From Heterodontus francisci (Eukaryota), in contig NC_090397.1 in NCBI RefSeq assembly GCF_036365525.1, positions 16,319,657-16,383,656 on the forward strand: a DNA stretch of 64,000 bases, written 5' to 3'. Below, one piece after another: positions 6,127 to 64,000 of this stretch; position 1 is the first letter of the stretch; every line of letters starts with the position of its first letter. The notes under the pieces are model-generated. The model was not told where the DNA came from. It searched no databases and worked only from the letters and a program-made list of their open reading frames with translations. Made by a program: the position numbers and the translations under genes.

Positions 6127-6137
6127 TGTGGGCTGGA

Positions 6138-6152
6138 CCTGTAATATACAAG
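6138..6152 (-). promoter_or_regulatory. Putative env splice acceptor
   Basis: Minus strand reads ttgtatattacAG|GTCCAGCCCACAATG, placing the acceptor 12 nt before the env ATG. Confidence 0.5.
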
Positions 6153-6371
6153 TGTAATTTCTGCTCTTATTTACAGTTTCTTTCTTATCCTATTTTAAGT
6201 TCAGTCTCTCCATACACTGAGCCAGACTGTCTATATCTTGTTCCCAATTTGTTACTGATTCTAACCGTCCATTTCTTCTAGCCCACTTACTTCCCCTGTT
6301 TTCTTTATTTTGCTTTCGTTTTTTTCCCTCAATTTTCCTCTGTATGTGGATGTACAACTTCAGGTTGTCTT

Positions 6372-7700: not shown

Positions 7701-7734
7701 TGTCCTCTATCGGTGGCTGCCATTCCTGCCCACT

Positions 7735-8175
7735 AACAGCACCTTGTTTGGCTAGCTCATCCGCTTTCCTGTTCCCTTCCGGAGTAAGTTTTGAATGAGC
7801 TTTTACCTTCGTGATCCCATATCCTTTCCCCTGTGCTCCTACAAAGATATATCTTAATCATGGAGCCGATGGAAGGGCTTCCCATCCGCTGAGATAAAAC
7901 CTCTCGCCTCCCATAAGGGCAAATGTTCCGTGAGGCTATTACAGACATACATGCTATCAGAATATATAACTGATCCACGCGGGAAGTATTCTGGGTGGCC
8001 AACCACATATGCGACGGCTGCTAATTCTGCTGCCTGCGCGCTCATTGTTTTAGGCAATTTTAAGGCTGCGCTAAACTTTTCCTGACCATGTTCGTCTTCT
8101 ACATATATTCCGCACCCAGTCCTCCTCTCGCCATCCTGTACTGATGAGGAACCATCCACAAAAATTTTTAAGTGG
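7735..8175 (-). pseudogene. pol: pol: second, retroviral-type RNase H (frameshifted)
   Basis: IFVDGSS...SAQAAELAAV...IYSDSMYV...WEARGFISADGKP, then in another frame KVKAHS...GNRKADELAKQGA. Confidence 0.9.
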
Positions 8176-30354: not shown

Positions 30355-30504
30355 GGCTGGGTAGCATCGGCCATGGTGGGATTTGAACCCGTGTCCCCAG
30401 GGCATTGGCCACACACGTGCCAGGCAAAGACCATCAACAAGAGAGAATCCAGCCAACTCCCCTTGAGATTCAGCGGCAGTACCATCGCTGAACCCCCCGC
30501 AATC
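30355..30504. mobile_element. Chimeric SINE-head (minus) and LINE RT (plus) fragment abutting the satellite
   Basis: 30370-30402 is the reverse complement of the SINE B-box region (compare 25381-25410). 30408-30504 resembles the LINE segment 22060-22165 ('PHTCQAKTINKRESSQLPLRFSGSTIAEPP'). Confidence 0.7.
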
Positions 30505-33500
30505 AAACAGCAGCACTGGAAAACAATAGAGCTCACAGTGAAACAGCAGCACCAGAAAACAATAGAGCTCACAGTTAAACGGCAGCACCAGGAAACAATA
30601 GAGTTCACAGTGAAACAGCAGCACTGGAAAACAATAGAGCTCACAGTTAAACAGCAGCACCAGGAAACAGTAGAGCTCAAAGTGAAACAGCAGCACCGGA
30701 AAACAATAGAGCTCACAGTGAAACAGCAGCACCGGAAAACAATAGAGTTCACAATGAAACAGCAGCACTGGAAAAAAATGGACCTCACAGTGAAACAGCA
30801 GCACTGCAAAACAATAGAGATCACAGTGAAACAACAGCAGCAGAAAACAATAGAGCTCACAGTGAAACACCAGCACTGGTAAACAATGGGGCTCACAGTG
30901 AAACAGCAGCACTGGAAAACAATAGAGCTCACAGTGAAACAGCAGCAGCGTAAAACAACAGAGCTCACAGTGAAACAGCAGCACCAGGAAACAATAGAAC
31001 CCGCAGTGAAACAGCACCAACACGAAACAGTCGAGCTCACAGTGAAAGAGCAGCACTGGAAAACAATAGAGCTTACAGTGCAACAGCAGCACCAGGAAAC
31101 AATCGAGCTCACAGTGAAACAGCAGCACCAGGAAACAATTGAGCTCACAGTGAAACAGCAGCACCAGGAAACAATAGAGCTCACAGTGAAACAGCAGCAC
31201 CAGAAAACAATAGAGCTCACAGTGAAACAGCAGCACCAGAAAACAATAGAGCTCACAGTGAAACAGCTGCACTGGGAAACAATAGAGCTCACAGTGAAAC
31301 AGCAGCACCAGAAAACAATAGAGCTCACAGTGAAACAGCAGCACCAGAAAACAATAGAGCTCACAGTGAAACAGCTGCACTGGGAAACAATAGAGCTCAC
31401 CGTAAAACAGCAGCACCAGAAAACAATAGAGCTCACAGTGAAACAGCAGCACTGGAAAACAATAGAGCTCACCGTGAAACAGCAGCACCAGAAAACAATA
31501 GAGCTCACAGTGAAACAGCAGCACCAGGAAACAAAAGAGCTCACAGTGCAACAGCAGCACCAGAAAACAATAGAGCTCACAGTGAAACAGCAGCACCAGG
31601 AAACAATAGAGCTCACAGTGAAACAGCAGCACCAGAAAACAATAGAGCTCACAGTGAAACAGCAGCACCAGGAAACAATAGAGATCACCGTGAAACAGCA
31701 GCACCAGGAAAACAATAGAGCTCACAGTGAAACAGCAGCACTGGAAAACAATAGAGCTCACCGTGAAACAGCAGCACCAGAAAACAATAGAGCTCACAGT
31801 GAAACAGCAGCACCAGGAAACAATAGAGCTCACAGTGAAACAGCAGCACCAGGAAACAATAGAGATCTCAGTGAAAGAGCAGCAGCGGAAAACAAGAGAG
31901 CTCACAGTGAAACAGCAGCACCAGGAAATAATAGAGCTCACAGTGAAACAGCAGCACTGGAAAACAATGGAGCTCACAGTGAAATAGCAGCACCAGGAAA
32001 CAATAGAGTTCACAGTGAAATAGCAGCACTGGAAAACAATGGAACTCACAGTGAAACAGCAGCACCAGGAAACAATAGAGTTCACAGTGAAATAGCAGCA
32101 CTGTAAAACAATGGAGCTCACAGTGAAACAGCAGCACCAGTAAATAATAGAGCTCACAGTGAAACAGCAGCACCAGAAAACAATAGAGCTCACAGTGAAA
32201 CAGTAGCACTGGAAAACAATAGAGCTCACAGTGCAACAGCAGCAATGGAAAAAAATGGACCTCACAGTGAAACAGCAGCACTGGAAAACAATAGAGCTCA
32301 CAGTGAAACAGCAGCACCAGAAAACAATAGAGCACACAGTGAAACAGCAGCACCAGGAAACAATAGAGCTCACCGTGAAACAGCAGCACTGGAAAACAAT
32401 AGAGCTCACAGTGAAACAGCAGCACTGGAAAACAATAGAGCTCACAGTGAAACAACAGCAGCAGAAAACAATAGAGCTCACAGTGAAACAGCAGCACTGG
32501 TAAACAATGGGGCTCACAGTGAAACAGCAGCACTGGAAAACAATAGAGCTCAAAGTGAAACAACAGCAGCAGAAAACAGTCGAGCTCACAGGGAAACAAC
32601 AGCAGCAGAAAACAATAGAGCTCACAGTGAAACAGCACCAACAGGAAACAGTCGAGCTCACAGTGAAACAGCAGCACTGGAAAACAATAGAGCTCACAGT
32701 GAAACAGCAGCAGCGTAAAACAACAGAGCTCACAGTGAAACAGCAGCACCAGGAAACAATAGAAACCGCAGTGAAACAGCACCAACAGGAAACAGTCGAG
32801 CTCACAGTTTAACAGCAGCACTGGAAAACAATAGAGCTTACAGTGCAACAGCAGCACCAGGAAACAATCGAGCTCACAGTGAAACAGCAGCACCAGGAAA
32901 CAATAGAGCTCACAGTGAAACAGCAGCACCAGGAAACAATAGAGCTCACAGTGAAACAGCAGCACCAGGAAACAATAGAGCTCACAGCGAAACAGCAGCA
33001 CTGGAAAACAATTGAGCTCACAGTAAAACAGCAGCACCAGAAAACAATAGAGCTCACAGTGAAACAGCAGCACCAGGAAACAATAGAGCTCACCGTGAAA
33101 CAGCAGCACTGGAAAACAATAGAGCTCACAGTGAAACAGCAGCACTGGAAAACAATAGAGCTCACCGTGAAACAGCAGCACCAGAAAACAATAGAGCTCA
33201 CAGTGAAACAGCAGCACCAGGAAACAATGGAGCTCACCGTGCAACAGCAGCACCAGAAAACAATAGAGCTCACAGTGAAACAGCAGCACCAGGAAACAAT
33301 AGAGATCTCAGTGAAATAGCAGCAGCGGAAAACAATAGAGCTCACAGTGAAACAGCAGCAGCGGGAAACAAGAGAGCTCACAGTGAAACAGCAGCACCAG
33401 GAAACAATAGAGCTCACTGTGAAATAGCAGCACTGGAAAACAATGGAGCTCACAGTGAAACAGCAGCACCAGGAAATAACAGAGCTCACAGTGAAACAGC

Positions 33501-36500
33501 AGCACTGAAAAACAATAGAGTTCACAGTGCAACAGCAGCACAAGGAAACAATGTAGCTCACAGTGAAACAGCAGCACTGGAAAACAATCGAGCTCAAAGT
33601 GAAACAGCTGCACCAGGAAACAATAGAGCTCACAGTGAAACAGCAGCAACAGGAAACAATAGAGCTCAAAGTGAAACAGCAGCACTGGAAAACAATAGAG
33701 CTCAAAGTGAAACAGCAGCACTGGAAAACAATCGAGCTCAAAGTGAAACAGCTGCACCAGGAAACAATAGAGCTCACAGTTTAACAGCAGCACTGGAAAA
33801 CAATAGAGTACACAGTGAAACAGCAGCACTGGAAAACAATAGAGCTGACAGTGAAACAGCAGCACAAGGAAACAACAGAGCTCACAGTGAAAGAGCAGCA
33901 ACAGGAAACAATCGAGCTCACAGTGAAACAGCAGCAGTGGAAAACAATAGAGCTGACAGTGAAACAGCAGCACAAGGAAACAACAGAGCTCACAGTGAAA
34001 CAGCAGCACAAGGAAACAATAGAGCTGACAGTGAAACAGCAGCACAAGGAAACAACAGAGCTCACAGTGAAAGAGCAGCAACAGGAAACAATCGAGCTCA
34101 AAGTGAAACAGCAGCAGTGGAAAACAGTAGAGCTCACAGTGAAACAGCAGCACTGGAAAACAATAGAGCTGACAGTGAAACAGCAGCACTGGAAAACAAT
34201 AGAGCTGACAGTGAAACAGCAGCACAAGGAAACAACAGAGCTCACAGTGAAAGAGCAGCAACAGGAAACAACAGAGCTCACAGTGAAACAGCAGCACTGG
34301 AAAACAATCAAGCTCACAGTGAAACAGCAGCACTGGAAAACATCGAGCTTACAGTGAAACAGCAGCAGTGGAAAACAGTAGAGCTCACAGTGAAACAGCA
34401 GCACTGGAAAACAATAGAGCTCACAGTGAAACAGCTGCACCAGGGAACAACAGAGCTCACAGTGAAACAGCAGCACTGGAAAACAATCAAGCTCACTGTG
34501 AAACAGCAGCACTGCAAAACATCGAGCTCACAGTGAAACAGCAGCAGTGGAAAACAATAGAGCTCACAGTGAAACAGCAGCACTGGAAAACATCGAGCTC
34601 ACAGTGAAACAGCAGCACTGGAAAACAATCAAGCTCACTGTGAAACAGCAGCACTGGAAAACAATCGAGCTCACAGTGAAACAGCAGCACTGGAAAACAA
34701 TCGAGCTCACAGTGAAACAGCAGCACTTGAAGACAACAGAGCTCACAGTGAAACAGCAGAACCAGGAATCAATAGAGCTCACAGTGAAACAGCAGCATTG
34801 GAAGACAATAGAGCTCACAGTGAAACAGCAGAACAAGGAATCAATAGAGCTCACAGTGAAACAGCAGCACTGGAAGACAATAGAGCTCAAAGTGAAACAG
34901 CAGCACAAGGAAACAATGCAGCTCACAGTGAAACAGCAGCACTGGAATACAATAGAGCTCACCGTGAAACAGCAGCACTGGAATACAATAGAGCTCACCG
35001 TGAAACAGCACCACCAGGAAACTGTAGAGCTCACCGGGAAACAGCAGCACCAGGAAACAACAGAGCTCAAAGTGAAGAGCAGCACTGGAAGACAACAGAG
35101 CTCAGAGTGAAACAGCAGCACTGGAAAGCAATCGAGCTCACAGTGAAACAGCGGCAGCAGAAAACAATAGAGATCACAGTGAAACAGCAGCAGTGGAAAA
35201 CTATAGAGCTCACAGTGAAACAGCAGCAGCAGGAAACAATGGAGCTCACAGTGAAACAGCAGCAGCAGGAAACAATGGAGCTCACAGTGAAACAGCGGCA
35301 CTGGAAAACAATAGAGCTCACAGTGAAACAGCAGCACTGGAAAACGATAGAGCTCACAGTGAAACAGCAGCACTGGAAAACAATATAGCTCACAGTGAAA
35401 CAGCAGCCCTGGAAAACAATAGAGCTCACAGTGAAACAGCAGCCCTGGACAACAATAGAGCTCTCAGTGAAACAGCGGCACCAGAAAACAATCGAGCTCA
35501 CAGTGAAACAGCAGCACTGGAAAACAGTGGAGCTCACAGTGAAACAGCTGCACCAGGAAACAATACAGCTCATATTGAAACAGCAGCACTGGAAACTAAT
35601 ACAGCTCAAAGTGAAACAGTTGCACCAGGAAACAATAGAGCTCACAGTGAAACAGCAGCACAAGGAACCAATGCAGCTCACAGTGAAACAGCAGCACTGG
35701 AAAACAATCGAGCTCAAAGTGAAACAGCTGCACAAAGAAACAATAGAGCTCACAGTTTAACAGCAGCACTGGAAAACAATAGAGTACACAGTGAAACAGC
35801 AGCACTGGAAAACAATAGAGCTGACAGTGAAACAGCAGCACAAGGAAACAACAGAGCTCACAGTGAAAGAGCAGCAACAGGAAACAATCGAGCTCACAGT
35901 GAAACAGCAGCACTGGAAAACAATAGAGCTCACAGTGAAACAGCAGCACAAGGAAACAACAGAGCTCACAGTGAAAGAGCAGCAACAGGAAACAATCGAG
36001 CTCAAAGTGAAACAGCAGCAGTGGAAAACAGTGGAGCTCACAGTGAAACAGCAGCACTGGAAAACAGTAGAGCTCACAGTGAAACAGCAGCACTGGAAAA
36101 CAATAGAGCTGACAGTGAAACAGCAGCACAAGGAAACAACAGAGCACACAGTGAAAGAGCAGCAACAGGAAACAATAGAGCTCACAGTGAAACAGCAGCA
36201 CTGGAAAACAATCAAGCTCACAGTGAAACAGCAGCACTGGAAAACATCGAGCTCACAGTGAAACAGCAGCAGTGGAAAACAGTAGAGCTCACAGTGAAAC
36301 AGCAGCACTGGAAAACAATAGAGCTCACAGTGAAACAGCTGCACCAGGAAACAACAGAGCTCACAGTGAAACAGCAGCACTGGAAAACAATCAAGCTCAC
36401 TGTGAAACAGCAGCACTGGAAGACATCGAGCTCATAGTGAAACAGCAGCAGTGGAAAACAATAGAGCTCACAGTGAAACAGCAGCACTGGAAAACAATAG

Positions 36501-39500
36501 AGCTCACAGTGAAACAGCTGCACCAGGAAACAACAGAGCTGACAGTGAAACAGCAGCACTGGAAAACAATCAAGCTCACTGTGAAACAGCAGCACTGGAA
36601 AACAATCGAGCTCACAGTGAAACAGCAGCACTGGAAAACAATCGAGCTCACAGTGAAACAGCAGCACTTGAAGACAACAGAGCTCACAGTGAAACAGCAG
36701 AACCAGGAATCAATAGAGCTCACAGTGAAACAGCAGCATTGGAAGACAATAGAGCTCACAGTGAAACAGCAGAACCAGGAATCAATAGAGCTCACAGTGA
36801 AACAGCAGCACTGGAAGACAATAGAGCTCAAAGTGAAACAGCAGCACAAGGAAACAATGCAGCTCACAGTGAAACAGCAGCACTGGAATACAATAGAGCT
36901 CACCGTGAAACAGCAGCACTGGAATACAATAGAGCTCACCGTGAAACAGCAGCACCAGGAAATAATAGAACTCACAGTGAAACAGCATCACTGGAGGATA
37001 ATAGAGCTCACAGTGAAAAAGCAGCACTGGAGGACAATAGAGCTCACCGTGAAACAGCACCACCAGGAAACTGTAGAGCTCACCGGGAAACAGCAGCACC
37101 AGGAAACAACAGAGCTCAAAGTGAAGAGCAGCACTGGAAGACAACAGAGCTCAGAGTGAAACAGCAGCACTGGAAAGCAATCGAGCTCACAGTGAAACAG
37201 CGGCAGCAGAAAACAATAGAGATCACAGTGAAACAGCAGCAGTGGAAAACTATAGAGCTCACAGTGAAACAGCAGCAGCAGGAAACAATGGAGCTCACAG
37301 TGAAACAGCAGCAGCAGGAAACAATGGAGCTCACAGTGAAACAGCGGCACTGGAAAACAATAGAGATCTCAGTGAAACAGCAGCAGTGGAAAGCAAGAGA
37401 CCTCTCAGTGAAACAGCAGCAGCAGGAAACAATGGAGCTCACAGTGAAACAGCAGCAGCAGGAAACAATGGAGCTCACAGTGAAACAGCAGCAGCAGGAA
37501 ACAATGGAGCTCACAGTGAAACAGCAGCAGCAGGAAACAATACAGCTCACAGTGAAACAGCAGCACCTGAAAACAATAGAGCTCACAGTGAAACAGCAGC
37601 ACTGAAAAAGAATAGAGCACACAATGAAACAGCAGCAGCGGCAAACAGTCGAGCTCACAGTGAAACAGCAGCACCGGGAAACAATACAGCTCACAGTGAA
37701 ACAGCAGCACTGGAAAGCAATCGAGCTCACAGTGAAACAGCAGCAACAGGAAACAATTGAGCTCACAGTGAAACAGCAGCAGTGGAAAACTATAGAGCTC
37801 AAAGTGAAACAGCAGCAGCGGAAAACAATAGAGATCACAGTGAAACAGCAGCAGTGGAAAACAAGAGACCTCTCAGTGAAACAGCAGCAGCCGGAAACAA
37901 TAGAGCTCACAGTGAAACAGCAGCAGCGGAATACAATAGAGCTCACAGTGAAACAGCAGCAGCGGAAAACAATAGAGATCACAGTGCAACACCAGCAGTG
38001 GAACACAATAGACCTCTCAGTGAAACAGCAGCACCAGAACACAATACAGCTCACAGTGAAACAGCAGCACTGGACAACAATAGAGCTCTCAGTGAAACAG
38101 CGGCACCAGAAAACAATAGAGCTCACAGTGAAACAGCAGCACTGGAAAACAGTGGAGCTCACAGTGAAACAGCAGCACCAGGAAACAATACAGCTCATAT
38201 TGAAACAGCAGCACTGGAAACTAATACAGCTCAAAGTGAAACAGTTGCACCAGGAAACAATAGAGCTCACAGTGAAACAGCAGCACAAGGAAACAATGCA
38301 GCTCACAGTGAAACAGCAGCACTGGAAAACAATCGAGCTCAAAGTGAAACAGCTGCACCAAGAAACAATAGAGCTCACAGTTTAACAGCAGCACTGGAAA
38401 ACAATAGAGTACACAGTGAAACAGCAGCACTGGAAAACAATAGAGCTGACAGTGAAACAGCAGCACAAGGAAACAACAGAGATCACAGTGAAAGAGCAGC
38501 AACAGGAAACAATCGAGCTCACAGTGAAACAGCAGCAGTGGAAAACAACAGAGCTCAAAGTGAAACAGCAGCACCGAAAAACAATAGAGCTCACAGTGAA
38601 ACAGCAGCACATTTAAAACAGTCAAGCTCACAGTGAAACAGCAGCAGTGGAAAACAGTAGAGCTCACTGTGAAACAGCAGCACTGGAAAACATCGAGCTC
38701 ACAGTGAAACAACAGCACGGGAAAACAATAGAGCTCACAGTGAAACAGCAGCACCAGGAAACAATCGAGCTCACAGTGAAACAGCAGCACTTGAAGACAA
38801 TAGAGCTCACAGTGAAACAGCAGAACCAGGAATCAATAGAGCTCACAGTGGAACAGCAGCACTGGAAGACAATAGAGCTCACAGTGAAACAGCAGAACCA
38901 GGAATCAATAGAGCTCACAGTGAAACAGCAGCACTGGAAGACAATAGAGCTCATAGTGAAACAGCAGCACTGGAAAACAATAGAGCTCACAGTGAAACAG
39001 CAGCACTGGAATACAATAGAGCTCACCATGAAACAGCAGCACCAGGAAATAATAGAACTCACAGTGAAACAGCATCACTGGAGGATAATCGAGCTCACAG
39101 TGAAACAGCAGCAGTGGAAAACAATAGAGCTCAAAGTGAAACAGCAGCACCGGAAAACAATAGAGCTCACAGTGAAACAGCAGCACATTTAAAACAGTCA
39201 AGCTCACAGTGAAACAGCAGCAGTGGAAAACAGTGGAGCTCACTGTGAAACAGCAGCACTGGAAAACATCGAGCTCACAGTGAAACAGCAGCACTGGAAT
39301 ACAATAGAGCTCACCGTGAAACAGCAGCACCAGGAAATAATAGAACTCACAGTGAAACAGCAGCACAGGAGGATAATAGAGCTCACAGTGAAAAAGCAGC
39401 ACTGGAAGACAATAGAGCTCACCGTGAAACAGCAGCACCAGGAAACTGTAGAGCTCACCGGGAAACAGCAACACCAGGAAACAACAGAGCTCACAGTGAA

Positions 39501-42500
39501 GACCAGCACTGGAAGACAACAGAGCTCACAGTGAAACAGCAGCACTGGAAAGCAATCGAGCTCACAGTGAAACAGCAGCAACAGGAAACAATTGAGCTCA
39601 CATGTGAAACAGCAGCAGTGGAAAACTATAGAGATCACAGTGAAACAGCAGCAGTGGAAAACAAGAGACCTCTCAGTGAAACAGCAGCAGCAGGAAACAA
39701 TAGAGCTCACAGTGAAACAGCAGCAGCGGAATACAATAGAGCTCACAGTGAAACAGCAGCAGCGGAAAACAATAGAGATCACAGTGCAACACCAGCAGTG
39801 GAACACAATAGACCTCTCAGTGAAACAGCAGCACCAGAAAACAATACAGCTCACAATGAAACAGCAGCACTGGACAACAATAGAGCTCTCAGTGAAACAG
39901 CGGCACCAGAAAACAATAGAGCTCACAGTGAAACAGTTGCACCAGGAAACAATAGAGCTCACAGTGAAACAGCAGCACAAGGAAACAATGCAGCTCACAG
40001 TGAAACAGCAGCACTGGAAAACAATCGAGCTCAAAGTGAAACAGCTGCACCAAGAAACAATAGAGCTCACAGTTTAACAGCAGCACTGGAAAACAATAGA
40101 GTACACAGTGAAACAGCAGCACTGGAAAACAATAGAGCTGACAGTGAAACAGCAGCACAAGGAAACAACAGACCTCACAGTGAAAGAGCAGCAACAGGAA
40201 ACAATCGAGCTCACAGTGAAACAGCAGCAGTGGAAAACAATAGAGCTGACAGTGAAACAGCAGCACAAGGAAACAACAGAGCTAACAGTGAAAGAGCAGC
40301 AACAGGAAACAATCGAGCTCAAAGTGAAACAGCAGCAGTGGAAAACAGTAGAGCTCACAGTGAAACAGCAGCACTGGAAAACAATAGAGCTCACAGTGAA
40401 ACAGCAGCACAAGGAAACAACAGAGCTCACAGTGAAAGAGCAGCAACAGGAAACAATCGAGCTCAAAGTGAAACAGCAGCAGTGGAAAACAGTAGAGCTC
40501 ACAGTGAAACAGCAGCACTGGAAATCAGTAGAGCTCACAGTGAAACAGCAGCACAAGGAAACAACAGAGCTCACAGTGAAAGAGCAGCAACAGGAAACAA
40601 CAGAGCTCACAGTGAAACAGCAGCACTGGAAAACAATCAAGCTCACAGTGAAACAGCAGCACTGGAAAACATCGAGCTCACAGTGAAACAGCAGCAGTGG
40701 AAAACAGTAGAGCTCACAGTGAAACAGCAGCACTGGAAAACAATAGAGCTCACAGTGAAACAGCTGCACCAGGAAACAACAGAGCTCACAGTGAAACAGC
40801 AGCACTGGAAAACAATCAAGCTCACTGTGAAACAGCAGCACTGGAAAACATCGAGCTCATAGTGAAACAGCAGCAGTGGAAAACAATAGAGCTCACAGTG
40901 AAACAGCAGCACTGGAAAACAATAGAGCTCACAGTGAAACAGCTGCATCAGGAAACAACAGAGCTGACAGTGAAACAGCAGCACTGGAAAACAATCAAGC
41001 TCACTGTGAAACAGCAGCACTGGAAAACAATCGAGCTCACAGTGAAACAGCAGCACTGGAAAACAATCGAGCTCACAGTGAAACAGCAGCACTTGAAGAC
41101 AACAGAGCTCACAGTGAAACAGCAGAACCAGGAATCAATAGAGCTCACAGTGAAACAGCAGCACTGGAAGACAATAGAGCTCACAGTGAAACAGCAGAAC
41201 CAGGAATCAATAGAGCTCACAGTGAAACAGCAGCACTGGAAGACAATAGAGCTCAAAGTGAAACAGCAGCACAAGGAAACAATGCAGCTCACAGTGAAAC
41301 AGCAGCGCTGGAATACAATAGAGCTCACCGTGAAACAGCAGCACTGGAATACAATAGAGCTCACCGTGAAACAGTAGCACCAGGAAATAATAGAACTCAC
41401 AGTGAAACAGCATCACTGGAGGATAATAGAGCTCACAGTGAAAAAGCAGCACTGGAAGACAATAGAGCTCACCGTGAAACAGCACCACTAGGAAACTGTA
41501 GAGCTCACCGGGAAACAGCAGCACCAGGAAACAACAGAGCTCACAGTGAAGAGCAGCACTGGAAGACAACAGAGCTCAGAGTGAAACAGCAGCACTGGAA
41601 AGCAATCGAGCTCACAGTGAAACAGTGGCAGCAGAAAACAATAGAGATCACAGTGAAACAGCAGCAGTGGAAAACTATAGAGCTCACAGTGAAACAGCAG
41701 CAGCAGGAAACAATGGAGCTCACAGTGAAACAGCAGCAGCAGGAAACAATGGAGCTCACAGTGAAACAGCGGCACTGGAAAACAATAGAGATCACAGTGA
41801 AACAGCAGCAGTGGAAAGCAAGAGACCTCTCAGTGAAACAGCAGCAGCAGGAAACAATGGAGCTCACAGTGAAACAGCAGCAGCAGGAAACAATGGAGCT
41901 CACAGTGAAACAGCAGCAGCAGGAAACAATGGAGCTCACAGTGAAACAGCAGCAGCAGGAAACAATACAGCTCACAGTGAAACAGCAGCACCTGAAAACA
42001 ATAGAGCTCACAGTGAAACAGCAGCACTGAAAAAGAATAGAGCACACAGTGAAACAGCAGCAGCGGCAAACAGTCGAGCTCACAGTGAAACAGCAGCACC
42101 GGGAAACAATACAGCTCACAGTGAAACAGCAGCACTGGAAAGCAATCGAGCTCACAGTGAAACAGCAGCAACAGGAAACAATTGAGCTCACAGTGAAACA
42201 GCAGCAGTGGAAAACTATAGAGCTCAAAGTGAAACAGCAGCAGCGGAAAACAATAGAGATCACAGTGAAACAGCAGCAGTGGAAAACAAGAGACCTCTCA
42301 GTGAAACAGCAGCAGCAGGAAACAATAGAGCTCACAGTGAAACAGCAGCAGCGGAATACAATAGAGCTCACAGTGAAACAGCAGCAGCGGTAAACAATAG
42401 AGATCACAGTGCAACACCAGCAGTGGAACACAATAGACCTCTCAGTGAAACAGCAGCACCAGAAAACAATACAGCTCATATTGAAACAGCAGCACTGGAA

Positions 42501-51500: not shown

Positions 51501-54500
51501 CGAGCTCACAGTGAAACAGCAGCACTTGAAGACAACAGAGCTCACAGTGAAACAGCAGAAGCAGGAATCAATAGAGCTCACAGTGAAACAGCAGCACTGG
51601 AAGACAATAGAGCTCACAGTGAAACAGCAGAACCAGGAATCAATAGAGCTCACAGTGAAACAGCAGCACTGGAAGACAATAGAGCTCAAAGTGAAACAGC
51701 AGCACAAGGAAACAATGCAGCTCACAGTGAAACAGCAGCACTGGAATACAATAGAGCTCACCGTGAAACAGCAGCACTGGAATACAATAGAGCTCACCGT
51801 GAAACAGCAGCACCAGGAAATAATAGAACTCACAGTGAAACAGCAGCACTGGAGGATAATAGAGCTCACAGTGAAAAAGCAGCACTGGAAGACAATAGAG
51901 CTCACCGTGAAACAGCACCACCAGGAAACAGTAGAGCTCACCGGGAAACAGCAGCACCAGGAAACAACAGAGCTCACAGTGAAGAGCAGCACTGGAAGAC
52001 AACAGAGCTCAGAGTGAAACAGCAGCACTGGAAAGCAATCGAGCTCACAGTGAAACAGCGGCAGCAGAAAACAATAGAGATCACAGTGAAACAGCAGCAG
52101 TGGAAAACTATAGAGCTCACAGTGAAACAGCAGCAGCAGGAAACAATGGAGCTCACAGTGAAACAGCAGCAGCAGGAAACAATGGAGCTCACAGTGAAAC
52201 AGCGGCACTGGAAAACAATAGAGATCACAGTGAAACAGCAGCAGTGGAAAGCAAGAGACCTCTCAGTGAAACAGCAGCAGCAGGAAACAATGGAGCTCAC
52301 AGTGAAACAGCAGCAGCAGGAAACAATACATCTCACAGTGAAACAGCAGCATCTGAAAACAATAGAGCTCACAGTGAAACAGCAGCACTGATAAAAGAAT
52401 AGAGCACACAGTGAAACAGCAGCAGCGGTAAACAGTCGAGCTCACAGTGAAACAGCAGCACCGGGAAACAATACAGCTCACAGTGAAACAGCAGCACTGG
52501 AAAGCAATCGAGCTCACAGTGAAACAGCAGCAACAGGAAACAATTGAGCTCACAGTGAAACAGCAGCAGTGGAAAACTATAGAGCTCAAAGTGAAACAGC
52601 AGCAGCGGAAAACAATAGAGATCACAGTGAAACAGCAGCAGTGGAAAACAAGAGACCTCTCAGTGAAACAGCAGCAGCAGGAAACAATAGAGCTCACAGT
52701 GAAACAGCAGCAGCGGAATACAATAGAGCTCACAGTGAAACAGCAGCAGCGGAAAACAATAGAGATCACAGTGCAACACCAGCAGTGGAACACAATAGAC
52801 CTCTCAGTGAAACAGCAGCACCAGAAAACAATACAGCTCAGTGAAACAGCAGCACTGGACAACAATAGAGCTCTCAGTGAAACAGCAGCACTGGAAAACA
52901 GTGGAGCTCACAGTGAAACAGCAGCACTGGAAAACAGTGGAGCTCACAGTGAAACAGCAGCACCAGGAAACAATACAGCTCATATTGAAACAGCAGCACT
53001 GGAAACTAATACAGCTCAAAGTGAAACAGTTGCACCAGGAAACACTAGAGCTCACAGTGAAACAGCAGCACAAGGAAACAATGCAGCTCACAGTGAAACA
53101 GCAGCACTGGAAAACAATCGAGCTCAAAGTGAAACAGCTGCACCAAGAAACAATAGAGCTCACAGTTTAACAGCAGCACTGGAAAACAATAGAGCTTACA
53201 GTGCAACAGCAGCACCAGGAAACAATCGAGCTCACAGTGAAACAGCAGCACCAGGAAACAATACAGCTCACAGTGAAACAGCAGCACCAGGAAACAATAG
53301 AGCTCACAGTGAAACAGCAGCACTGGAAAACAATTGAGCTCACAGTGAAACAGCAGCACCAGAAAACAAAAGAGCTCACAGTGAAACAGCAGCACCAGGA
53401 AACAATAGAGCTCACCGTGAAACAGCAGCACAGGAAAACAATAGAGCTCACAGTGAAACAGCATCACTGGAGGATAATCGAGCTCACAGTAAAACAGCAG
53501 CAGTGGAAAACAATAGAGCTCAATGTGAAACAGCAGCACCGGAAAACAATAGTGCTCACAGTGAAACAGCAGCACATTTAAAACAGTCAAGCTCACAGTG
53601 AAACAGCAGCAGTGGAAAACAGTGGAGCTCACTGTGAAACAGCAGCACTGGAAAACATCGAGCTCACAGTGAAACAGCAGCACGGGAAAACAATAGAGCT
53701 CACAGTGAAACAGCAGCACCAGGAAACAATCGAGCTCACAGTGAAACAGCAGCACTTGAAGACAATAGAGCTCACAGTGAAACAGCAGAACCAGGAATCA
53801 ATGGAGCTCACAGTGAAACAGCAGCACTGGAAGACAATAGAGCTCACAGTGAAACAGCAGAACCAGGAATCAATAGAGCTCACAGTGAAACAGCAGCACT
53901 GGAAGACAATAGAGCTCATAGTGAAACAGCAGCACTGGAAAACAATAGAGCTCACAGTGAAACAGCAGCACTGGAATACAATAGAGCTCACCGTGAAACA
54001 GCAGCACCAGGAAATAATAGAACTCACAGTGAAACAGCAGCACAGGAGGATAATAGAGCTCACAGTGAAAAAGCAGCACTGGAAGACAATAGAGCTCACC
54101 GTGAAACAGCAGCACCAGGAAACTGTAGAGCTCACCGGGAAACAGCAACACCAGGAAACAACAGAGTTCACAGTGAAGACCAGCACTGGAAGACAACAGA
54201 GCTCACAGTGAAACAGCAGCACTGGAAAGCAATCGAGCTCACAGTGAAACAGCAGCAACAGGAAGCAATTGAGCTCACATGTGAAACAGCAGCAGTGAAA
54301 AACTATAGATATCACAGTGAAACAGCAGCAGAGGAAAACAAGAGACCTCTCAGTGAAACAGCAGCAGCAGGAAACAATACAGCTCACAGTGAAACAGCAG
54401 CACCAGAAAACAATAGAGCTCACAGTGAAACAGCAGCAGCGGAATACAATAGAGCTCACAGTGAAACAGCAGCACGAGGGAACAATACAGCTCACAGTGA

Positions 54501-57500
54501 AACAGCAGCACTGGAAAACAATGGAGCTCACAGTGAAACAGCAACACCAGGAAACAATAGAGCTCACAGTGAAACAGCAGCACTGAAAAAGAATAGAGCA
54601 CACAGTGAAACAGCAGCAGTGGAAAACAGTCGAGCTCACAGTGAAACAGCAGCACCGGGAAACAATACAGCTCACAGTGAAACAGCAGCACTGGAAAGCA
54701 ATAGAGCTCAAAGTGAAACAGCAGCATTAGGAAACAATCAAGCTCACAGTGAAACAGCAGCACTGGAAAACAATAGAGCTCACAGTGAAACAGCAGCAGC
54801 GGAAAACAATAGAGATCACAGTGCAACACCAGCAGTGGAAAACAATAGACCTCTCAGTGAAACAGCAGCACCAGAAAACAATACAGCTCACAGTGAATCA
54901 GCAGCACTGGACAACACTAGAGCTCTCAGTGAAACAGCGGCACCGGAAAACAATAGAGCTCGCAGTGAAACAGCAGCAATAGGAAACAATACAGCTCACA
55001 GTGAAACAGCAGCACTGGAAAACAGTGGAGCTCACAGTGAAGCAGCAGCACCGGAAAACAATAGAGCTCGCAGTGAAACAGCAGCACCAGGAAACAATAG
55101 AGCTCACAGTGAAACAGCAGCAGCGGATAACAGTCGAGCTCTCAGTGAAACAGCAGCACCAGGAAACAATAGAGCTCACAGTGAAACAGCAGCACCGGGA
55201 AACAATCGAGCTCACAATGTAAAAGCAGCACGAGGAAATAATCGAGCTCACAGTGAAACAGCAGCACTGGAAAACAATAGAGCTCACAGTGAAACAGCAG
55301 CACTGGAAATCAATAGAGCACACAGTGAAACAGCAGCACTGGAAAACAATAGAGCTCACAGTGAAACAGCAGCACTGGAAAACAATAGAGCTTACAGTGA
55401 AACAGCAGCACCAGGAAACAATAGAGCTCACAGTGAAATAGCAGCACCAGAAAACAATAGAGCTCACAGTGAAACAGCAGCACCGGAATACAATAGAGCT
55501 CACAGTGAAACAGCAGCGCTGGAAAACAATAGAGCTCAAAGTGAAACAGCAGCACCAGGAAACAATAGAGTTCACAGTGAAACCGCAGCACCGGAATACA
55601 ACAGAGCTCACAGTGAAACAGCAGCACTGGAAAACAATAGAGCTCAAAGTGAAACAGCAGCACCAGGAAACAATACAGCTCACAGTGAAACAGCAGCACC
55701 AGGAAACAATAGAGCTCACAGTGAAACAGCAGCACCAGGAAACAATAGAGCTCACAGTGAAACAGCAGCACTGGAAAACAATTGAGCTCACAGTGAAACA
55801 GCAGCACCAGAAAACAAAAGAGCTCACAGTGAAACAGCAGCACCAGGAAACAATAGAGCTCACCGTGAAACAGCAGCACAGGAAAACAATAGAGCTCACA
55901 GTGAAACAGCATCACTGGAGGATAATCGAGCTCACAGTAAAACAGCAGCAGTGGAAAACAATAGAGCTCAAAGTGAAACAGCAGCACCGGAAAACAATAG
56001 TGCTCACAGTGAAACAGCAGCACATTTAAAACAGTCAAGCTCACAGTGAAACAGCAGCAGTGGAAAACAGTGGAGCTCACTGTGAAACAGCAGCACTGGA
56101 AAACATCGAGCTCACAGTGAAACAGCAGCACGGGAAAACAATAGAGCTCACAGTGAAACAGCAGCACCAGGAAACAATCGAGCTCACAGTGAAACAGCAG
56201 CACTTGAAGACAATAGAGCTCACAGTGAAACAGCAGAACCAGGAATCAATAGAGCTCACAGTGAAACATCAGCACTGGAAGACAATAGAGCTCACAGTGA
56301 AACAGCAGAACCAGGAATCAATAGAGCTCACAGTGAAACAGCAGCACTGGAAGACAATAGAGCTCATAGTGAAACAGCAGCACTGGAAAACAATAGAGCT
56401 CACAGTGAAACAGCAGCACTGGAATACAATAGAGCTCACCGTGAAACAGCAGCACCAGGAAATAATAGAACTCACAGTGAAACAGCAGCACAGGAGGATA
56501 ATAGAGCTCACAGTGAAAAAGCAGCACTGGAAGACAATAGAGCTCACCGTGAAACAGCAGCACCAGGAAACTGTAGAGCTCACCGGGAAACAGCAACACC
56601 AGGAAACAACAGAGTTCACAGTGAAGACCAGCACTGGAAGACAACAGAGCTCACAGTGAAACAGCAGCACTGGAAAGCAATCGAGCTCACAGTGAAACAG
56701 CAGCAACAGGAAGCAATTGAGCTCACATGTGAAACAGCAGCAGTGAAAAACTATAGATATCACAGTGAAACAGCAGCAGAGGAAAACAAGAGACCTCTCA
56801 GTGAAACAGCAGCAGCAGGAAACAATACAGCTCACAGTGAAACAGCAGCACCAGAAAACAATAGAGCTCACAGTGAAACAGCAGCAGCGGAATACAATAG
56901 AGCTCACAGTGAAACAGCAGCACGAGGGAACAATACAGCTCACAGTGAAACAGCAGCACTGGAAAACAATGGAGCTCACAGTGAAACAGCAACACCAGGA
57001 AACAATAGAGCTCACAGTGAAACAGCAGCACTGAAAAAGAATAGAGCACACAGTGAAACAGCAGCAGTGGAAAACAGTCGAGCTCACAGTGAAACAGCAG
57101 CACCGGGAAACAATACAGCTCACAGTGAAACAGCAGCACTGGAAAGCAATAGAGCTCAAAGTGAAACAGCAGCATTAGGAAACAATCAAGCTCACAGTGA
57201 AACAGCAGCACTGGAAAACAATAGAGCTCACAGTGAAACAGCAGCAGCGGAAAACAATAGAGATCACAGTGCAACACCAGCAGTGGAAAACAATAGACCT
57301 CTCAGTGAAACAGCAGCACCAGAAAACAATACAGCTCACAGTGAATCAGCAGCACTGGACAACACTAGAGCTCTCAGTGAAACAGCGGCACCGGAAAACA
57401 ATAGAGCTCGCAGTGAAACAGCAGCAATAGGAAACAACACAGCTCACAGTGAAACAGCAGCACTGGAAAACAGTGGAGCTCACAGTGAAGCAGCAGCACC

Positions 57501-60500
57501 GGAAAACAATAGAGCTCGCAGTGAAACAGCAGCACCAGGAAACAATAGAGCTCACAGTGAAACAGCAGCAGCGGATAACAGTCGAGCTCTCAGTGAAACA
57601 GCAGCACCAGGAAACAATAGAGCTCACAGTGAAACAGCAGCACCAGGAAACAATCGAGCTCACAATGTAAAAGCAGCACGAGGAAATAATCGAGCTCACA
57701 GTGAAACAGCAGCACTGGAAAACAATAGAGCTCACAGTGAAACAGCAGCACTGGAAATCAATAGAGCACACAGTGAAACAGCAGCACTGGAAAACAATAG
57801 AGCTCACAGTGAAACAGCAGCACTGGAAAACAATAGAGCTTACAGTGAAACAGCAGCACCAGGAAACAATAGAGCTCACAGTGAAATAGCAGCACCAGAA
57901 AACAATAGAGCTCACAGTGAAACAGCAGCACCGGAATACAATAGAGCTCACAGTGAAACAGCAGCGCTGGAAAACAATAGAGCTCAAAGTGAAACAGCAG
58001 CACCAGGAAACAATAGAGTTCACAGTGAAACCGCAGCACCGGAATACAACAGAGCTCACAGTGAAACAGCAGCACTGGAAAACAATAGAGCTCAAAGTGA
58101 AACAGCTGCACCAGGAAACAATAGAGTTCACAGTGAAACCGCAGCACTGGAAATCAATAGAGCTCACAGTGAAACAGCAGCACTGGGAAACAATAGAGCT
58201 CACAGTGAAACAGCAGCACCAGGAAACAATCAAGCTCACAGTGAAACAGCAGCACCAGAAAACAATAGAGCTCACAGTGAAACAGCAGCACCAGGAAACA
58301 AAAGAGCTCACCGTCAAACAGCAGCACCAGAAAACAATAGAGCTCACAGTGAAACAGCAGCACCAGGAAACAATAGAGCTCACAGTGAAACAGCAGCACC
58401 AGAAAACAATAGAGCTCACAGTGAAACAGCAGCACCAGAAAACAATAGAACTCACAGTGAAACAGCAGCACCAGGAAACAATAGAGCTCACAGTGAAACA
58501 GCAGCACTGGGAAACATTAGAGCTCACAGTGAAACAGCAGCACCGGAAAACAATAGAGCTCACAGTGAAAAAGCAGCACCAGGAAACAATAGAGCTCACA
58601 GTGAAACAGCAGCACCAGGAAACAATAGAGCTCACAGTGAAACAGCAGCACTGGGAAACATTAGAGCTCACAGTGAAACAGCAGCACCGGAAAACAATAG
58701 AGCTCACAGTGAAACAGCAGCACCAGGAAACAATAGAGATCACCGTGAAACAGCAACACGAGGAAACAATAGAGCTCACAGTGAAACAGCAGCACTGGAA
58801 AACAATATAGCTCACAGTGAAAAAGCAGCACCAGGAAACAATAGAGCTCACAGTGAAACAGCAGCACTAGGAAACAATACAGCTCACAGTGAAACAGCAG
58901 CACCAGGAAACAATAGAGCTCACAGTGAAACAGCAGCACTGGAAAACGATAGAGCTCACAGTGAAACAGCAGCACTGGAAAACAATATAGCTCACAGTGA
59001 AACAGCAGCCCTGGAAAACAATAGAGCTCACAGTGAAACAGCAGCACCGGAAAACAATAGAGCTCACAGTGAAACAGCCGCACCAGGAAACAACAGAGCT
59101 CACAGTGAAACAGCAGCACTGGAAAACATCGAGCTCACAGTGAAACAGCAGCAGTGGAAAACAGTAGAGCTCACAGTGAAACAGCAGCACTGGAAAACAA
59201 TAGAGCTCACAGTGAAACAGCTGCACCAGGAAACAACAGAGCTCACAGTGAAACAGCAGCACTAGAAAACAATCAATCTCACTGTGAAACAGCAGCACTG
59301 GAAAACATCGAGCTCACAGTGAAACAGCAGCAGTGGAAAACAATAGAGCTCACAGTGAAACAGCAGCACTGGAAAATAATAGAGCTCACAGTGAAACAGC
59401 TGCACCAGGAAACAACAGAGCTGACAGTGAAACAGCAGCACTGGAAAACAATCAAGCTCACTGTGAAACAGCAGCACTGGAAAACAATCGAGCTCACAGT
59501 GAAACAGCAGCACTGGAAAACAATCGAGCTCACAGTGAAACAGCAGCACTTGAAGACAACAGAGCTCACAGTGAAACAGCAGAACCAGGAATCAATAGAG
59601 CTCACAGTGAAACAGCAGCACTGGAAGACAATAGAGCTCACAGTGAAACAGCAGAACCAGGAATCAATAGAGCTCACAGTGAAACAGCAGCACTGGAAGA
59701 CAATAGAGCTCAAAGTGAAACAGCAGCACAAGGAAACAATGCAGCTCACAGTGAAACAGCAGCACTGGAATACAATAGAGCTCACCGTGAAACAGCAGCA
59801 CTGGAATACAATAGAGCTCACCGTGAAACAGCAGCACCAGGAAATAATAGAACTCACAGTGAAACAGCAGCACTGGAGGATAATAGAGCTCACAGTGAAA
59901 AAGCAGCACTGGAAGACAATAGAGCTCACCGTGAAACAGCACCACCAGGAAACAGTAGAGCTCACCGGGAAACAGCAGCACCAGGAAACAACAGAGCTCA
60001 AAGTGAAGAGCAGCACTGGAAGACAACAGAGCTCAGAGTGAAACAGCAGCACTGGAAAGCAATCGAGCTCACAGTGAAACAGCGGCAGCAGAAAACAATA
60101 GAGATCACAGTGAAACAGCAGCAGTGGAAAACTATAGAGCTCACAGTGAAACAGCAGCAGCAGGAAACAATGGAGCTCACAGTGAAACAGCAGCAGCAGG
60201 AAACAATGGAGCTCACAGTGAAACAGCGGCACTGGAAAACAATAGAGATCACAGTGAAACAGCAGCAGTGGAAAGCAAGAGACCTCTCAGTGAAACAGCA
60301 GCAGCAGGAAACAATGGAGCTCACAGTGAAACAGCAGCAGCAGGAAACAATACAGCTCACAGTGAAACAGCAGCATCTGAAAACAATAGAGCTCACAGTG
60401 AAACAGCAGCACTGAAAAAGAATAGAGCACACAGTGAAACAGCAGCAGCGGCAAACAGTCGAGCTCACAGTGAAACAGCAGCACCGGGAAACAATACAGC

Positions 60501-63500
60501 TCACAGTGAAACAGCAGCACTGGAAAGCAATCGAGCGCACAGTGAAACAGCAGCAACAGGAAACAATTAAGCTCACAGTGAAACAGCAGCAGTGGAAAAC
60601 TATAGAGCTCAAAGTGAAACAGCAGCAGCGGAAAACAATAGAGATCACAGTGAAACAGCAGCAGTGGAAAACAAGAGACCTCTCAGTGAAACAGCAGCAG
60701 TAGGAAACAATAGAGCTCACAGTGAAACAGCAGCAGCGGAATACAATAGAGCTCACAGTGAAACAGCAGCAGCGGAAAACAATAGAGATCACAGTGCAAC
60801 ACCAGCAGTGGAACACAATAGACCTCTCAGTGAAACAGCAGCACCATAAAACAATACAGCTCACAGTGAAACAGCAGCACTGGACAACAATAGAGCTCTC
60901 AGTGAAACAGCAGCACTGGAAAACAGTGGAGCTCACAGTGAAACAGCAGCACTGGAAAACAGTGGAGCTCACAGTGAAACAGCAGCACCAGGAAACAATA
61001 CAGCTCATATTGAAACAGCAGCACTGGAAACTAATACAGCTCAAAGTGAAACAGTTGCACCAGGAAACACTAGAGCTCACAGTGAAACAGCAGCACAAGG
61101 AAACAATGCAGCTCACAGTGAAACAGCAGCACTGGAAAACAATCGAGCTCAAAGTGAAACAGCTGCACCAAGAAACAATAGAGCTCACAGTTTAACAGCA
61201 GCACTGGAAAACAATAGAGCTTACAGTGCAACAGCAGCACCAGGAAACAATACAGCTCACAGTGAAACAGCAGCACCAGGAAACAATAGAGCTCACAGTG
61301 AAACAGCAGCACCAGGAAACAATAGAGCTCACAGTGAAACAGCAGCACTGGAAAACAATTGAGCTCACAGTGAAACAGCAGCACCAGGAAACAATAGAGC
61401 TCACCGTGAAACAGCAGCACAGGAAAACAATAGAGCTCACAGTGAAACAGCAGCACTGGAAAACAATAGAGCTCACCGTGAAACAGCAGCACCAGAAAAC
61501 AATAGAGCTCACAGTGAAACAGCAGCACCAGGAAACAATAGAGATCTCAGTGAAATAGCAGCAGCGGAAAACAATAGAGCTCACAGTGAAACAGCAGCAG
61601 CGGGAAACAAGAGAGCTCACAGTGAAACAGCAGCACCAGGAAACAATAGAGCTCACTGTGAAATAGCAGCACTGGAAAACAATGGAGCTCACAGTGAAAC
61701 AGCAGCACCAGGAAATAACAGAGCTCACAGTGAAACGGCAGCACTGAAAAACAATAGAGTTCACAGTGCAACAGCAGCACAAGGAAACAATGCAGCTCAC
61801 AGTGAAACAGCAGCACTGGAAAACAATCGAGCTCAAAGTGAAACAGCTGCACCAGGAAACAATAGAGCTCACAGTGAAACAGCAGCACCAGGAAACAACA
61901 GAGCTCAAAGTGAAACAGCAGCACTGGAAAACAATAGAGCTCAAAGTGAAACAGCAGCACTGGAAAACAATCGAGCTCAAAGTGAAACAGCTGCACCAGG
62001 AAACAATAGAGCTCACAGTTTAACAGCAGCACTGGAAAACAATAGCGTGCACAGTGAAACAGCAGCACTGGAAAACAATAGAGCTCACCGTGAAACAGCA
62101 GCACCAGGAAACAATAGAGATCTCAGTGAAATAGCAGCAGCGGAAAACAATAGAGCTCACAGTGAAACAGCAGCAGCGGGAAACAAGAGAGCTCACAGTG
62201 AAACAGCAGCACAAGGAAACAATAGAGCTGACAGAGAAACAGCAGCACAAGGAAACAACAGAGCTCACAGTGAAACAGCAGCACTGGAAGACAATAGAGC
62301 TCAAAGTGAAACAGCAGCACAAGGAAACAATGCAGCTCACAGTGAAACAGCAGCACTGGAATACAATAGAGCTCACCGTGAAACAGCAGCACTGGAATAC
62401 AATAGAGCTCACCGTGAAACAGCAGCACCAGGAAATAATAGAACTCACAGTGAAACAGCAGCACTGGAGGATAATAGAGCTCACAGTGAAAAAGCAGCAC
62501 TGGAAGACAATAGAGCTCACCGTGAAACAGCACCACCAGGAAACAGTAGAGCTCACCGGGAAACAGCAGCACCAGGAAACAACAGAGCTCAAAGTGAAGA
62601 GCAGCACTGGAAGACAACAGAGCTCAGAGTGAAACAGCAGCACTGGAAAGCAATCGAGCTCACAGTGAAACAGCGGCAGCAGAAAACAATAGAGATCACA
62701 GTGAAACAGCAGCAGTGGAAAACTATAGAGCTCACAGTGAAACAGCAGCAGCAGGAAACAATGGAGCTCACAGTGAAACAGCAGCAGCAGGAAACAATGG
62801 AGCTCACAGTGAAACAGCGGCACTGGAAAACAATAGAGATCACAGTGAAACAGCAGCAGTGGAAAGCAAGAGACCTCTCAGTGAAACAGCAGCAGCAGGA
62901 AACAATGGAGCTCACAGTGAAACAGCAGCAGCAGGAAACAATACAGCTCACAGTGAAACAGCAGCATCTGAAAACAATAGAGCTCACAGTGAAACAGCAG
63001 CACTGAAAAAGAATAGAGCACACAGTGAAACAGCAGCAGCGGCAAACAGTCGAGCTCACAGTGAAACAGCAGCACCGGGAAACAATACAGCTCACAGTGA
63101 AACAGCAGCACTGGAAAGCAATCGAGCGCACAGTGAAACAGCAGCAACAGGAAACAATTAAGCTCACAGTGAAACAGCAGCAGTGGAAAACTATAGAGCT
63201 CAAAGTGAAACAGCAGCAGCGGAAAACAATAGAGATCACAGTGAAACAGCAGCAGTGGAAAACAAGAGACCTCTCAGTGAAACAGCAGCAGTAGGAAACA
63301 ATAGAGCTCACAGTGAAACAGCAGCAGCGGAATACAATAGAGCTCACAGTGAAACAGCAGCAGCGGAAAACAATAGAGATCACAGTGCAACACCAGCAGT
63401 GGAACACAATAGACCTCTCAGTGAAACAGCAGCACCATAAAACAATACAGCTCACAGTGAAACAGCAGCACTGGACAACAATAGAGCTCTCAGTGAAACA

Positions 63501-64000
63501 GCAGCACTGGAAAACAGTGGAGCTCACAGTGAAACAGCAGCACTGGAAAACAGTGGAGCTCACAGTGAAACAGCAGCACCAGGAAACAATACAGCTCATA
63601 TTGAAACAGCAGCACTGGAAACTAATACAGCTCAAAGTGAAACAGTTGCACCAGGAAACACTAGAGCTCACAGTGAAACAGCAGCACAAGGAAACAATGC
63701 AGCTCACAGTGAAACAGCAGCACTGGAAAACAATCGAGCTCAAAGTGAAACAGCTGCACCAAGAAACAATAGAGCTCACAGTTTAACAGCAGCACTGGAA
63801 AACAATAGAGCTTACAGTGCAACAGCAGCACCAGGAAACAATACAGCTCACAGTGAAACAGCAGCACCAGGAAACAATAGAGCTCACAGTGAAACAGCAG
63901 CACCAGGAAACAATAGAGCTCACAGTGAAACAGCAGCACTGGAAAACAATTGAGCTCACAGTGAAACAGCAGCACCAGGAAACAATAGAGCTCACCGTGA
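30505..64000. repeat. 36-bp tandem satellite, about 930 monomers, running off the window end; consensus CACAGTGAAACAGCAGCAC(TGGA/CAGG/CAGA)AAACAATAGAGCT
   Basis: Directly visible uninterrupted head-to-tail array with occasional 35- and 37-bp variants, a SacI site (GAGCTC) in most monomers, and higher-order duplications. Confidence 0.99.

Follow-up and report, generated by a model that had tools for sequence, protein, structure and literature searches.

A 36-bp satellite array of Heterodontus francisci whose likeness to V(D)J recombination signals probably arose from minisatellite repeats

Does a satellite whose repeat unit reads like a signal for V(D)J recombination owe this likeness to the RAG recombinase and its targets, or could ordinary repeat growth have produced it? 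The question is raised by a 36-bp tandem array in a stretch of 64,000 bp from Heterodontus francisci (NC_090397.1, positions 16,319,657 to 16,383,656; here called the window, on contig C27 of our genome coordinates G000), whose unit combines the perfect recombination signal sequence (RSS) heptamer CACAGTG with a nonamer-like A-tract after a 12-bp spacer. An initial annotation had described the array as hundreds of co-oriented cryptic 12-RSSs, with an amplified antigen-receptor RSS or a RAG/Transib-type transposon end as possible source and a RAG sink as possible function. We consider it likely that a 15-17-bp minisatellite, once dimerised, gave rise to this single-locus array through ordinary unequal exchange, and that heptamer and A-tract make up an incidental, weak predicted cryptic 12-RSS.

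Tandem Repeats Finder places the array on the plus strand from position 30505 to the end of the window (931 copies, 85% matches), and the adjoining stretches extend it by 18.8 kb to window coordinate 82,796 (G000:C27:16,402,452). With 52.3 kb and 1,452 units in total, the satellite is longer than the 33 kb and more that had been claimed. All units are co-oriented, with no self match on the minus strand and no inverted block or inverted copy in the array, and higher-order blocks of 2.3-4.3 kb show 97-98% identity compared with 85% matches between single units. Head-to-tail units in one orientation and blocks that are more alike than the units define it as a locus-specific satellite with higher-order repeats. 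Its restriction to a single locus is evident from a 19-mer with 531 matches in the genome, 347 of them in the window and 184 in the next 20 kb, and from a 26-mer for which all 986 genome matches with up to two mismatches are local. The left edge cuts into an interspersed repeat, which we take to be a long interspersed nuclear element, and the right edge fades into unique DNA; the right junction is spanned without differences by a contig from the same sample that includes two units. Summed read depth in a same-sample run (about 14,300 for the units, 9.9 for the flank) is compatible with the unit count and is not a copy-number measure. Another run, presumed to be RNA, has no contig over the repeat units and gives no evidence either way on expression. 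A second organism (B) holds 6% of the sampled array words, and its contigs at 80% likeness cover the repeat units and not the unique flank, which indicates that a related satellite is present there.

The RSS-like features of the unit are real in part. A perfect heptamer is found in 993 of the 1,452 units and a CAC-initial one in 1,168. The layout that had been ascribed to each consensus unit was CACAGTG followed by exactly 12 bp and a nonamer. The example unit with CAGAAAACA in the nonamer slot (Table 1) is exact as cited, but heptamer, spacer and one of the three nonamers named by the initial annotation occur together in only 288 of 1,452 units (186 of the 930 whole units in the window). Across 989 heptamers, the nonamer at 12 bp matches the consensus at three or fewer of nine positions in 98, at four in 442, at five in 443 and at six in 6 cases, so that the stated match of 4-5/9 is seen in 885 and 6/9 is never exceeded. 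The spacing is not sharp. Five or more matches are reached by 449 of the 989 heptamers with a 12-bp spacer (6 of them reaching 6/9) and by 335 with an 11-bp spacer (88 reaching 6/9), and since 11 bp performs about as well, the "exactly 12 bp" is soft. As had been stated, there is no nonamer at 23 bp or on the opposite strand: with a 23-bp spacer 2/989 heptamers reach 5/9, which provides no 23-RSS partner within the array, and on the minus strand none of 36 heptamers reaches 4/9 at any of six spacer lengths.

To compare the unit with signals of the same animal, we used a position matrix from 52 distinct own 12-RSSs, drawn from 49 J signals picked by the FGxG motif and distance alone and five V signals picked by a consensus pattern. 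This matrix is not the recombination signal information-content (RIC) model, comes mostly from one J cluster, is circular for the five V picks and retains four of 52 training sequences that look misregistered; a cross-species RSS classifier also exists (PMC5203794). The commonest unit scores 4.4 bits, compared with a leave-one-out median of 25 bits for the own 12-RSSs; its heptamer contributes +11.8, and spacer and nonamer are both negative. Only four of the 52 natural picks score below it, and these are apparently in the wrong register. In 301.7 kb of flanking DNA, 114 of 9,519 CAC sites score at least as high as the unit, which puts it in the top 1.2%, and so do five of the 76 perfect heptamers, which occur there at about twice the expected frequency. 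Extrapolated from these five sites, about 100,000 equally good perfect-heptamer sites would be expected genome-wide, to which the array would add about 1%.

Shuffling locates the source of the score. Full shuffles of the unit reach its matrix score in 1.5% of 20,000 trials. With the heptamer kept, 22.6% reach the score and 41% attain 5/9 with a 12- or 23-bp spacer; a narrower feature, AAAAC in nonamer positions 4-8, is produced in 1.0%. The heptamer thus carries nearly all of the signal. The unit shares its heptamer with the own light-chain V and T-cell receptor (TCR) J 12-RSSs, and the spacers of the light-chain V signals start with A-x-ACAG as in the array. In contrast, 39 of 49 own J nonamers match at 7-9/9, and the array lies outside the receptor loci. 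It has the CAC-initial heptamer of a bona fide 12-RSS, lacks a near-consensus nonamer and, within the sequence and patterns scanned (see below), an adjoining coding segment and a 23-RSS partner in cis, and is not a member of this class. Of the "hundreds of co-oriented cryptic 12-RSSs", the co-orientation stands and weak predicted cryptic signals are plausible, but the nonamer is poor and the matrix score weak.

Where the unit may have come from is suggested by its relatives. A 396-bp piece of the array was compared with the whole genome in a DNA search that skips very common words, and the only matches outside the locus were satellites of 15-17 bp on C3 (17-bp unit) and C16 (15-bp unit), with 17 matches, a best E-value of 1.2e-9 and none at immunoglobulin (Ig) or TCR loci. 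The main array on C3 is no shorter than 138 kb, and its perfect heptamers, about 12 in each kb, have no nonamer in register. Per 10 kb, common 12-mers of the array number 99 and 71 in two stretches of C3 and 22 in C16, compared with 1.7 in the flanks and 1.0 in 27 Ig/TCR stretches; sharing with C3 is thus 40-60 times the flank level, and it includes variant words of both halves of the unit. When the unit was aligned with a sample of 68 out of the 134 distinct 40-mers of C3, none of 1,500 heptamer-keeping shuffles attained the median alignment score. The C3 and C16 satellites have strand-biased CACAG, AAACAG and GAG blocks in common with the array, and the C3 unit contains perfect heptamers, of which 240 lie on a single strand within 20 kb; however, their period is shorter and they are more diverged (74-77% matches), and in the C3 unit, with its period of 17, the A-tract misses the nonamer slot, with six of the 240 C3 heptamers reaching the score of the 36-bp unit. 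Judged by these comparisons, the array shares subunit sequence beyond composition with the C3/C16 family, a likeness compatible with common descent and with convergence alike.

The 36-mer itself consists of a 16-bp and a 20-bp half, which are alike at 11 of 16 positions and each resemble the C3 unit. If a heptamer-AAACAG subunit is repeated after 16 bp, AAAC automatically falls on nonamer positions 5-8 of a 12-RSS; the AAACAG at the start of the spacer and the A-tract of the nonamer would then count as a single feature that appears twice and not as independent matches. In the mechanism that we propose, a dimer of a 15-17-bp minisatellite would have become the 36-bp unit, unequal exchange or slippage would have enlarged the array, and the heptamer alone would be the single coincidence behind the whole 12-RSS architecture.

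Several observations weigh against this reading. The inner duplication of the 36-mer is marginal (self-match P 0.03-0.05 against shuffles); the C3/C16 relatives are the best genome-wide matches, yet of low complexity, with inflated E-values and convergence possible; and the exact heptamer-AAACAG join is absent from every C3 and C16 stretch examined. One real-looking own J segment has a nonamer that scores lower than that of the unit. In a published model of all 262,144 nonamers, trained on a 23-RSS with mouse RAG, TGGAAAACA is row 901 and TGGAAAACT row 153 of the 1,000 with the best predictions (PMC12711392), so that the dominant nonamer of the array falls in the top 0.4%. TGGAAAACA is present in 264 of 989 heptamer units and any nonamer of this top-1,000 list in 285 (264 + 21), whereas eight other array nonamers that were looked up are absent from the list. 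Furthermore, a heptamer followed by AA, as in the array, gave 0.33% of reads vs 1.14% with AT and 0.096% with AG (PMC9723617), and thus recombined better than the heptamer+AG of the own light-chain V genes. Given the listed nonamer and these heptamer data, the activity of the array may exceed what the matrix implies.

Other published data speak for weak activity. The nonamer of the LMO2 cryptic 12-RSS, TGGAAAATA, is one base away from TGGAAAACA and recombines weakly, with 1% of signal joints vs 22% for the PAX3 nonamer and the remainder for the consensus nonamer (Hoolehan et al., 2022, PMC9723617); LMO2 is, however, a single site in an accessible gene that was measured with mammalian RAG, and the array variant has the consensus C at position 8. 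Coding flanks ending in TT gave 3-5% vs 92% for AC in the same study, and the array flank before the heptamer ends in CT in most units, which is not among the flanks measured there. By analogy with these neighbours, weak but non-zero RAG activity on plasmids is likely for about 285 of 989 heptamer units, and the array is predicted to work like a weak cryptic 12-RSS; on a plasmid, RAG would bind and cut the unit with, at most, roughly a few percent of the efficiency seen for a consensus signal. A preprint reports that the use of cryptic sites is poorly predicted by RSS likeness and by chromatin marks (10.64898/2026.09.01.748595), and rare cutting of the array in vivo is therefore possible.

Could the array be kept because RAG binds or nicks it, as a sink, decoy or hotspot and whatever its origin? 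About 990 co-oriented heptamers at 36-bp spacing, the 285 units with a published top-1,000 nonamer, an active housekeeping gene (lactate dehydrogenase, LDH) 31 kb away and related units in the second organism would fit this idea. The units themselves speak against it. Mean column identity is 0.95 in the heptamer, 0.96 in the spacer, 0.82 in the nonamer and 0.91 in the linker, and among 310 distinct units CAC plus nonamer positions 5-7 diverge by 0.084 vs 0.069 in the other columns (P 0.18); as far as sequence divergence tells, there is no constraint on the bases read by RAG, and 284 of 1,452 units have lost CAC. At the 5' edge of the heptamer the 1,452 units have no insertions and three deletions, and head-to-head heptamers are missing. 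Co-oriented signals would give inversions if joined, and since neither inversions nor joints are seen, the array is free of germline RAG scars, a result that covers the germline of one assembly. In addition, the expected equal sites elsewhere in the genome outnumber the array by far, and no CpG island lies within 30 kb by the cut-off that we set. We therefore regard maintenance by RAG as very unlikely. In vivo the array would be a minor RAG target, with no 23-RSS partner, far from any recombination centre and adding little to the equal heptamer sites of the genome; the CpG-poor sequence and the distance to any CpG island would also keep its exposure low.

The origins that compete with a minisatellite dimer differ in what they have to explain. 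If the unit, or the whole 15-17-bp family, descended from a real receptor RSS that moved to C27 and was amplified there, the 23-RSS of a C34 V family and the 12-RSS of the C8 light-chain genes would be the best candidates. The former aligns with the unit over 27/28 bases with three gaps, the latter together with its downstream flank, each with a score of 35 and, uncorrected for the 68 comparisons, a P of 0.0002 under a Markov null. The C34 RSS moreover has CAC again 15 bp downstream of its first base and stands in tandem copies behind its V genes, CACA follows exactly 36 bp after the start of the C8 RSS, RAG-like activity is described in shark germ cells (PMC2193156), and the minisatellite family itself could descend from a signal. 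Over all 68 RSSs, however, the family-wise P is 0.065 (6.5% of unit shuffles reach the best RSS 40-mer score), the alignments require three gaps and eight bases and disrupt the true nonamer, and other satellites align better with the unit than the RSSs do. The C34 motif has 28 exact genome matches, all on C34 and without a dispersed intermediate, and no V/D/J remnant was detected in the 300 of 623 non-repeat open reading frames (ORFs) scanned over 354 kb. A single-copy progenitor outside the array was found neither with two array patterns and one C34-type pattern nor in the DNA search that skips common words. Descent from a receptor RSS is thus unlikely, and the amplified-RSS source envisaged at the outset gives way to closer relatives among other minisatellites; the fuller scenario, in which a receptor RSS left its locus in the shark germline, seeded the array and perhaps the C3/C16 satellites and left about 990 signals that are still bound and cut by RAG, appears quite improbable. 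The ends of RAG/Transib-type transposons begin with a CAC heptamer, and an amplified terminal inverted repeat of such an element would account for this part of the unit. Nevertheless, the array starts just past a heptamer position and ends inside the nonamer slot, so that neither end lies at the 5' edge of a heptamer; an inverted partner end and a target-site duplication are not visible, the flanks are unlike, and all pattern matches of the unit fall inside the array, with no dispersed copies. The RAG1 family gave one match, on C14, in a search of reduced sensitivity, limited to the RAG1 profile, that may miss weak copies. On the array ends and the lack of dispersal, a transposon-end identity was rejected, and we rate it as highly improbable. 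Chance resemblance both to RSSs and to the C3/C16 satellites, with a seed from local unique purine-rich sequence, would agree with the low complexity, the doubled heptamer frequency in the flanks and a last unit that fades into unique flank, but hardly with the 40-60-fold 12-mer sharing with C3 that extends to variant words of both halves; we think it improbable, and it predicts the same RAG function as the minisatellite origin. To a coding repeat of 12 codons per unit we give next to no credence: the period is a multiple of three and open frames reach 1,059 codons, but every frame has 200-689 stops within the window, 35- and 37-bp units are frequent, and a 300-residue piece found none of its 8,000 scored protein candidates, which were restricted to lengths of 165-525, to be a relative at E 1e-5. 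On these three points it was rejected.

The receptor loci of this 6.0-Gb genome lie elsewhere. C8 and C46 carry repeated light-chain-type V clusters with 12-RSSs, and the J and V clusters of TCR type belong to C34 and C5, in agreement with the jawed vertebrate, likely a shark, that had been named as host. C27 has a single match to each of the consensus 12- and 23-patterns, at distances of 21 and 26 Mb to the array (exact patterns only); reversed-pattern controls give 38 and 55 matches genome-wide, and the two C27 matches are therefore at chance level. In the 354 kb around the array, no Ig domain was found in 300 of 623 non-repeat ORFs (at least 60 residues) compared with Pfam, a search that short exons may escape; the Pfam matches were lactate dehydrogenase, glycogen synthase and transposon domains. 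The suspected linkage to Ig/TCR loci is not borne out. The first LDH coding exon lies 31 kb beyond the array, a neighbourhood which presumably represents LDHB-GYS2 synteny.

A separate observation concerns true signals. In a TCR alpha/delta-type region on C34, one V family, identified as Ig V domain and in our assumption NAR-TCR-like, has 2-5 head-to-tail copies of a genuine 23-RSS directly 3' of V with a 61-66-bp unit. Several copies stand behind all six V genes examined, and more pairs appeared in the genome pattern search. In 6/6 genes, a reading frame that continues from V into the first copy runs into a stop, and use of a distal copy would therefore likely give a non-productive joint. A literature search that covered few subscription papers yielded no report of tandem RSSs behind shark V genes. 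On C29 (G000:C29:47.50-47.51 Mb), six identical 22-spacer RSS-pattern matches ending in a CA run lie 0.5-3.5 kb apart; this is another repeat with a chance RSS-like unit.

Further elements of the surroundings are included in Table 1. The broken retroelement-like stretch upstream of the array is presumably Penelope-like. Near the array, at L013:6-1099 (window coordinates 84,086-85,099) and at 215,915-216,820, lie small minisatellites with units of 22-24 bp and 29 bp that are unrelated to it.

Table 1. Coordinates of the array, its parts, related repeats and neighbouring features (window coordinates unless a contig is given)
Feature	Position	Strand	Remarks
36-bp array, part inside window	30505..64000	+	931 copies; whole array 52.3 kb, 1,452 units
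Perfect RSS heptamer, example unit	30534..30540	+	Present in 993/1,452 units
12-bp "spacer", example unit	30541..30552	+	Best-conserved block, mean column identity 0.96
Nonamer-like slot, example unit, CAGAAAACA	30553..30561	+	4-5/9 in 885/989 heptamer units; least-conserved block, 0.82
Commonest unit, natural copy: first 16-bp half (heptamer + AAACAG + CAG)	30606..30621	+	Like 17-bp C3 unit
Second 20-bp half of the same copy	30622..30641	+	11/16 identical to first half; its AAACA is the nonamer A-tract
Interspersed-repeat fragment interrupted by array start	30408..30504	+	4 paralogues continue into different sequence at that point
Related satellites	C3:94.31-94.45 Mb (L001, L110, L111); C3:48.9 Mb (48.94); C3:149.87 Mb (L112); C16:94.73 Mb (L113)		15-17 bp
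Tandem 23-RSS example	G000:C34 L103:6336-6680 (C34:5,466,336 on)		Also L104, L105, L106, L107, L125
Lactate dehydrogenase exons	~113,900-124,200 (L015-L017)	+	Pfam
Glycogen synthase exons	234,700 on (L028-L029)	+	Pfam
Long terminal repeat (LTR) retroelement, Gypsy domain order	5048-11868	-	Zinc knuckle, protease, reverse transcriptase, RNase H, integrase; broken frames; Pfam
Second RNase H match	7857-8207		Pfam
Broken retroelement-like stretch	~25540-27640	+	Overlapping ORFs of 128-234 residues; no Pfam match in scanned pieces

A precedent for RSS-like sequence in the unit of a tandem satellite is the mouse major (gamma) satellite, which holds functional cryptic RSSs and for which both a connection with the RAG transposon and a role as harmless sink of RAG breaks were proposed (Cowell et al., 2003, PMC2193808), the same ideas as in the initial annotation. 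The mouse repeat has a 234-bp unit, makes up about 6% of the genome and carries 23-type signals with imperfect heptamers, two of three tested signals recombine on plasmids, and it is broken in a RAG-inducible line. The array described here has a 36-bp unit at one 52-kb locus, 12-type geometry, a perfect heptamer and a predicted activity. No description of this 36-bp satellite was found in the literature search, with its small share of subscription papers. As it stands, the array is one more satellite with incidental predicted cryptic RAG signals, of the kind reported for mouse in 2003. Proof of descent from a real RSS would show directly that V(D)J signals are able to escape from receptor loci and turn into satellite DNA. 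The runs of true 23-RSSs on C34 bear more directly than the satellite on how RAG chooses among adjacent signals. The array in turn is a natural substrate with hundreds of variant 12-type signals in one orientation, and it offers a way to ask whether RAG touches heterochromatic arrays in a lineage with germline RAG activity.

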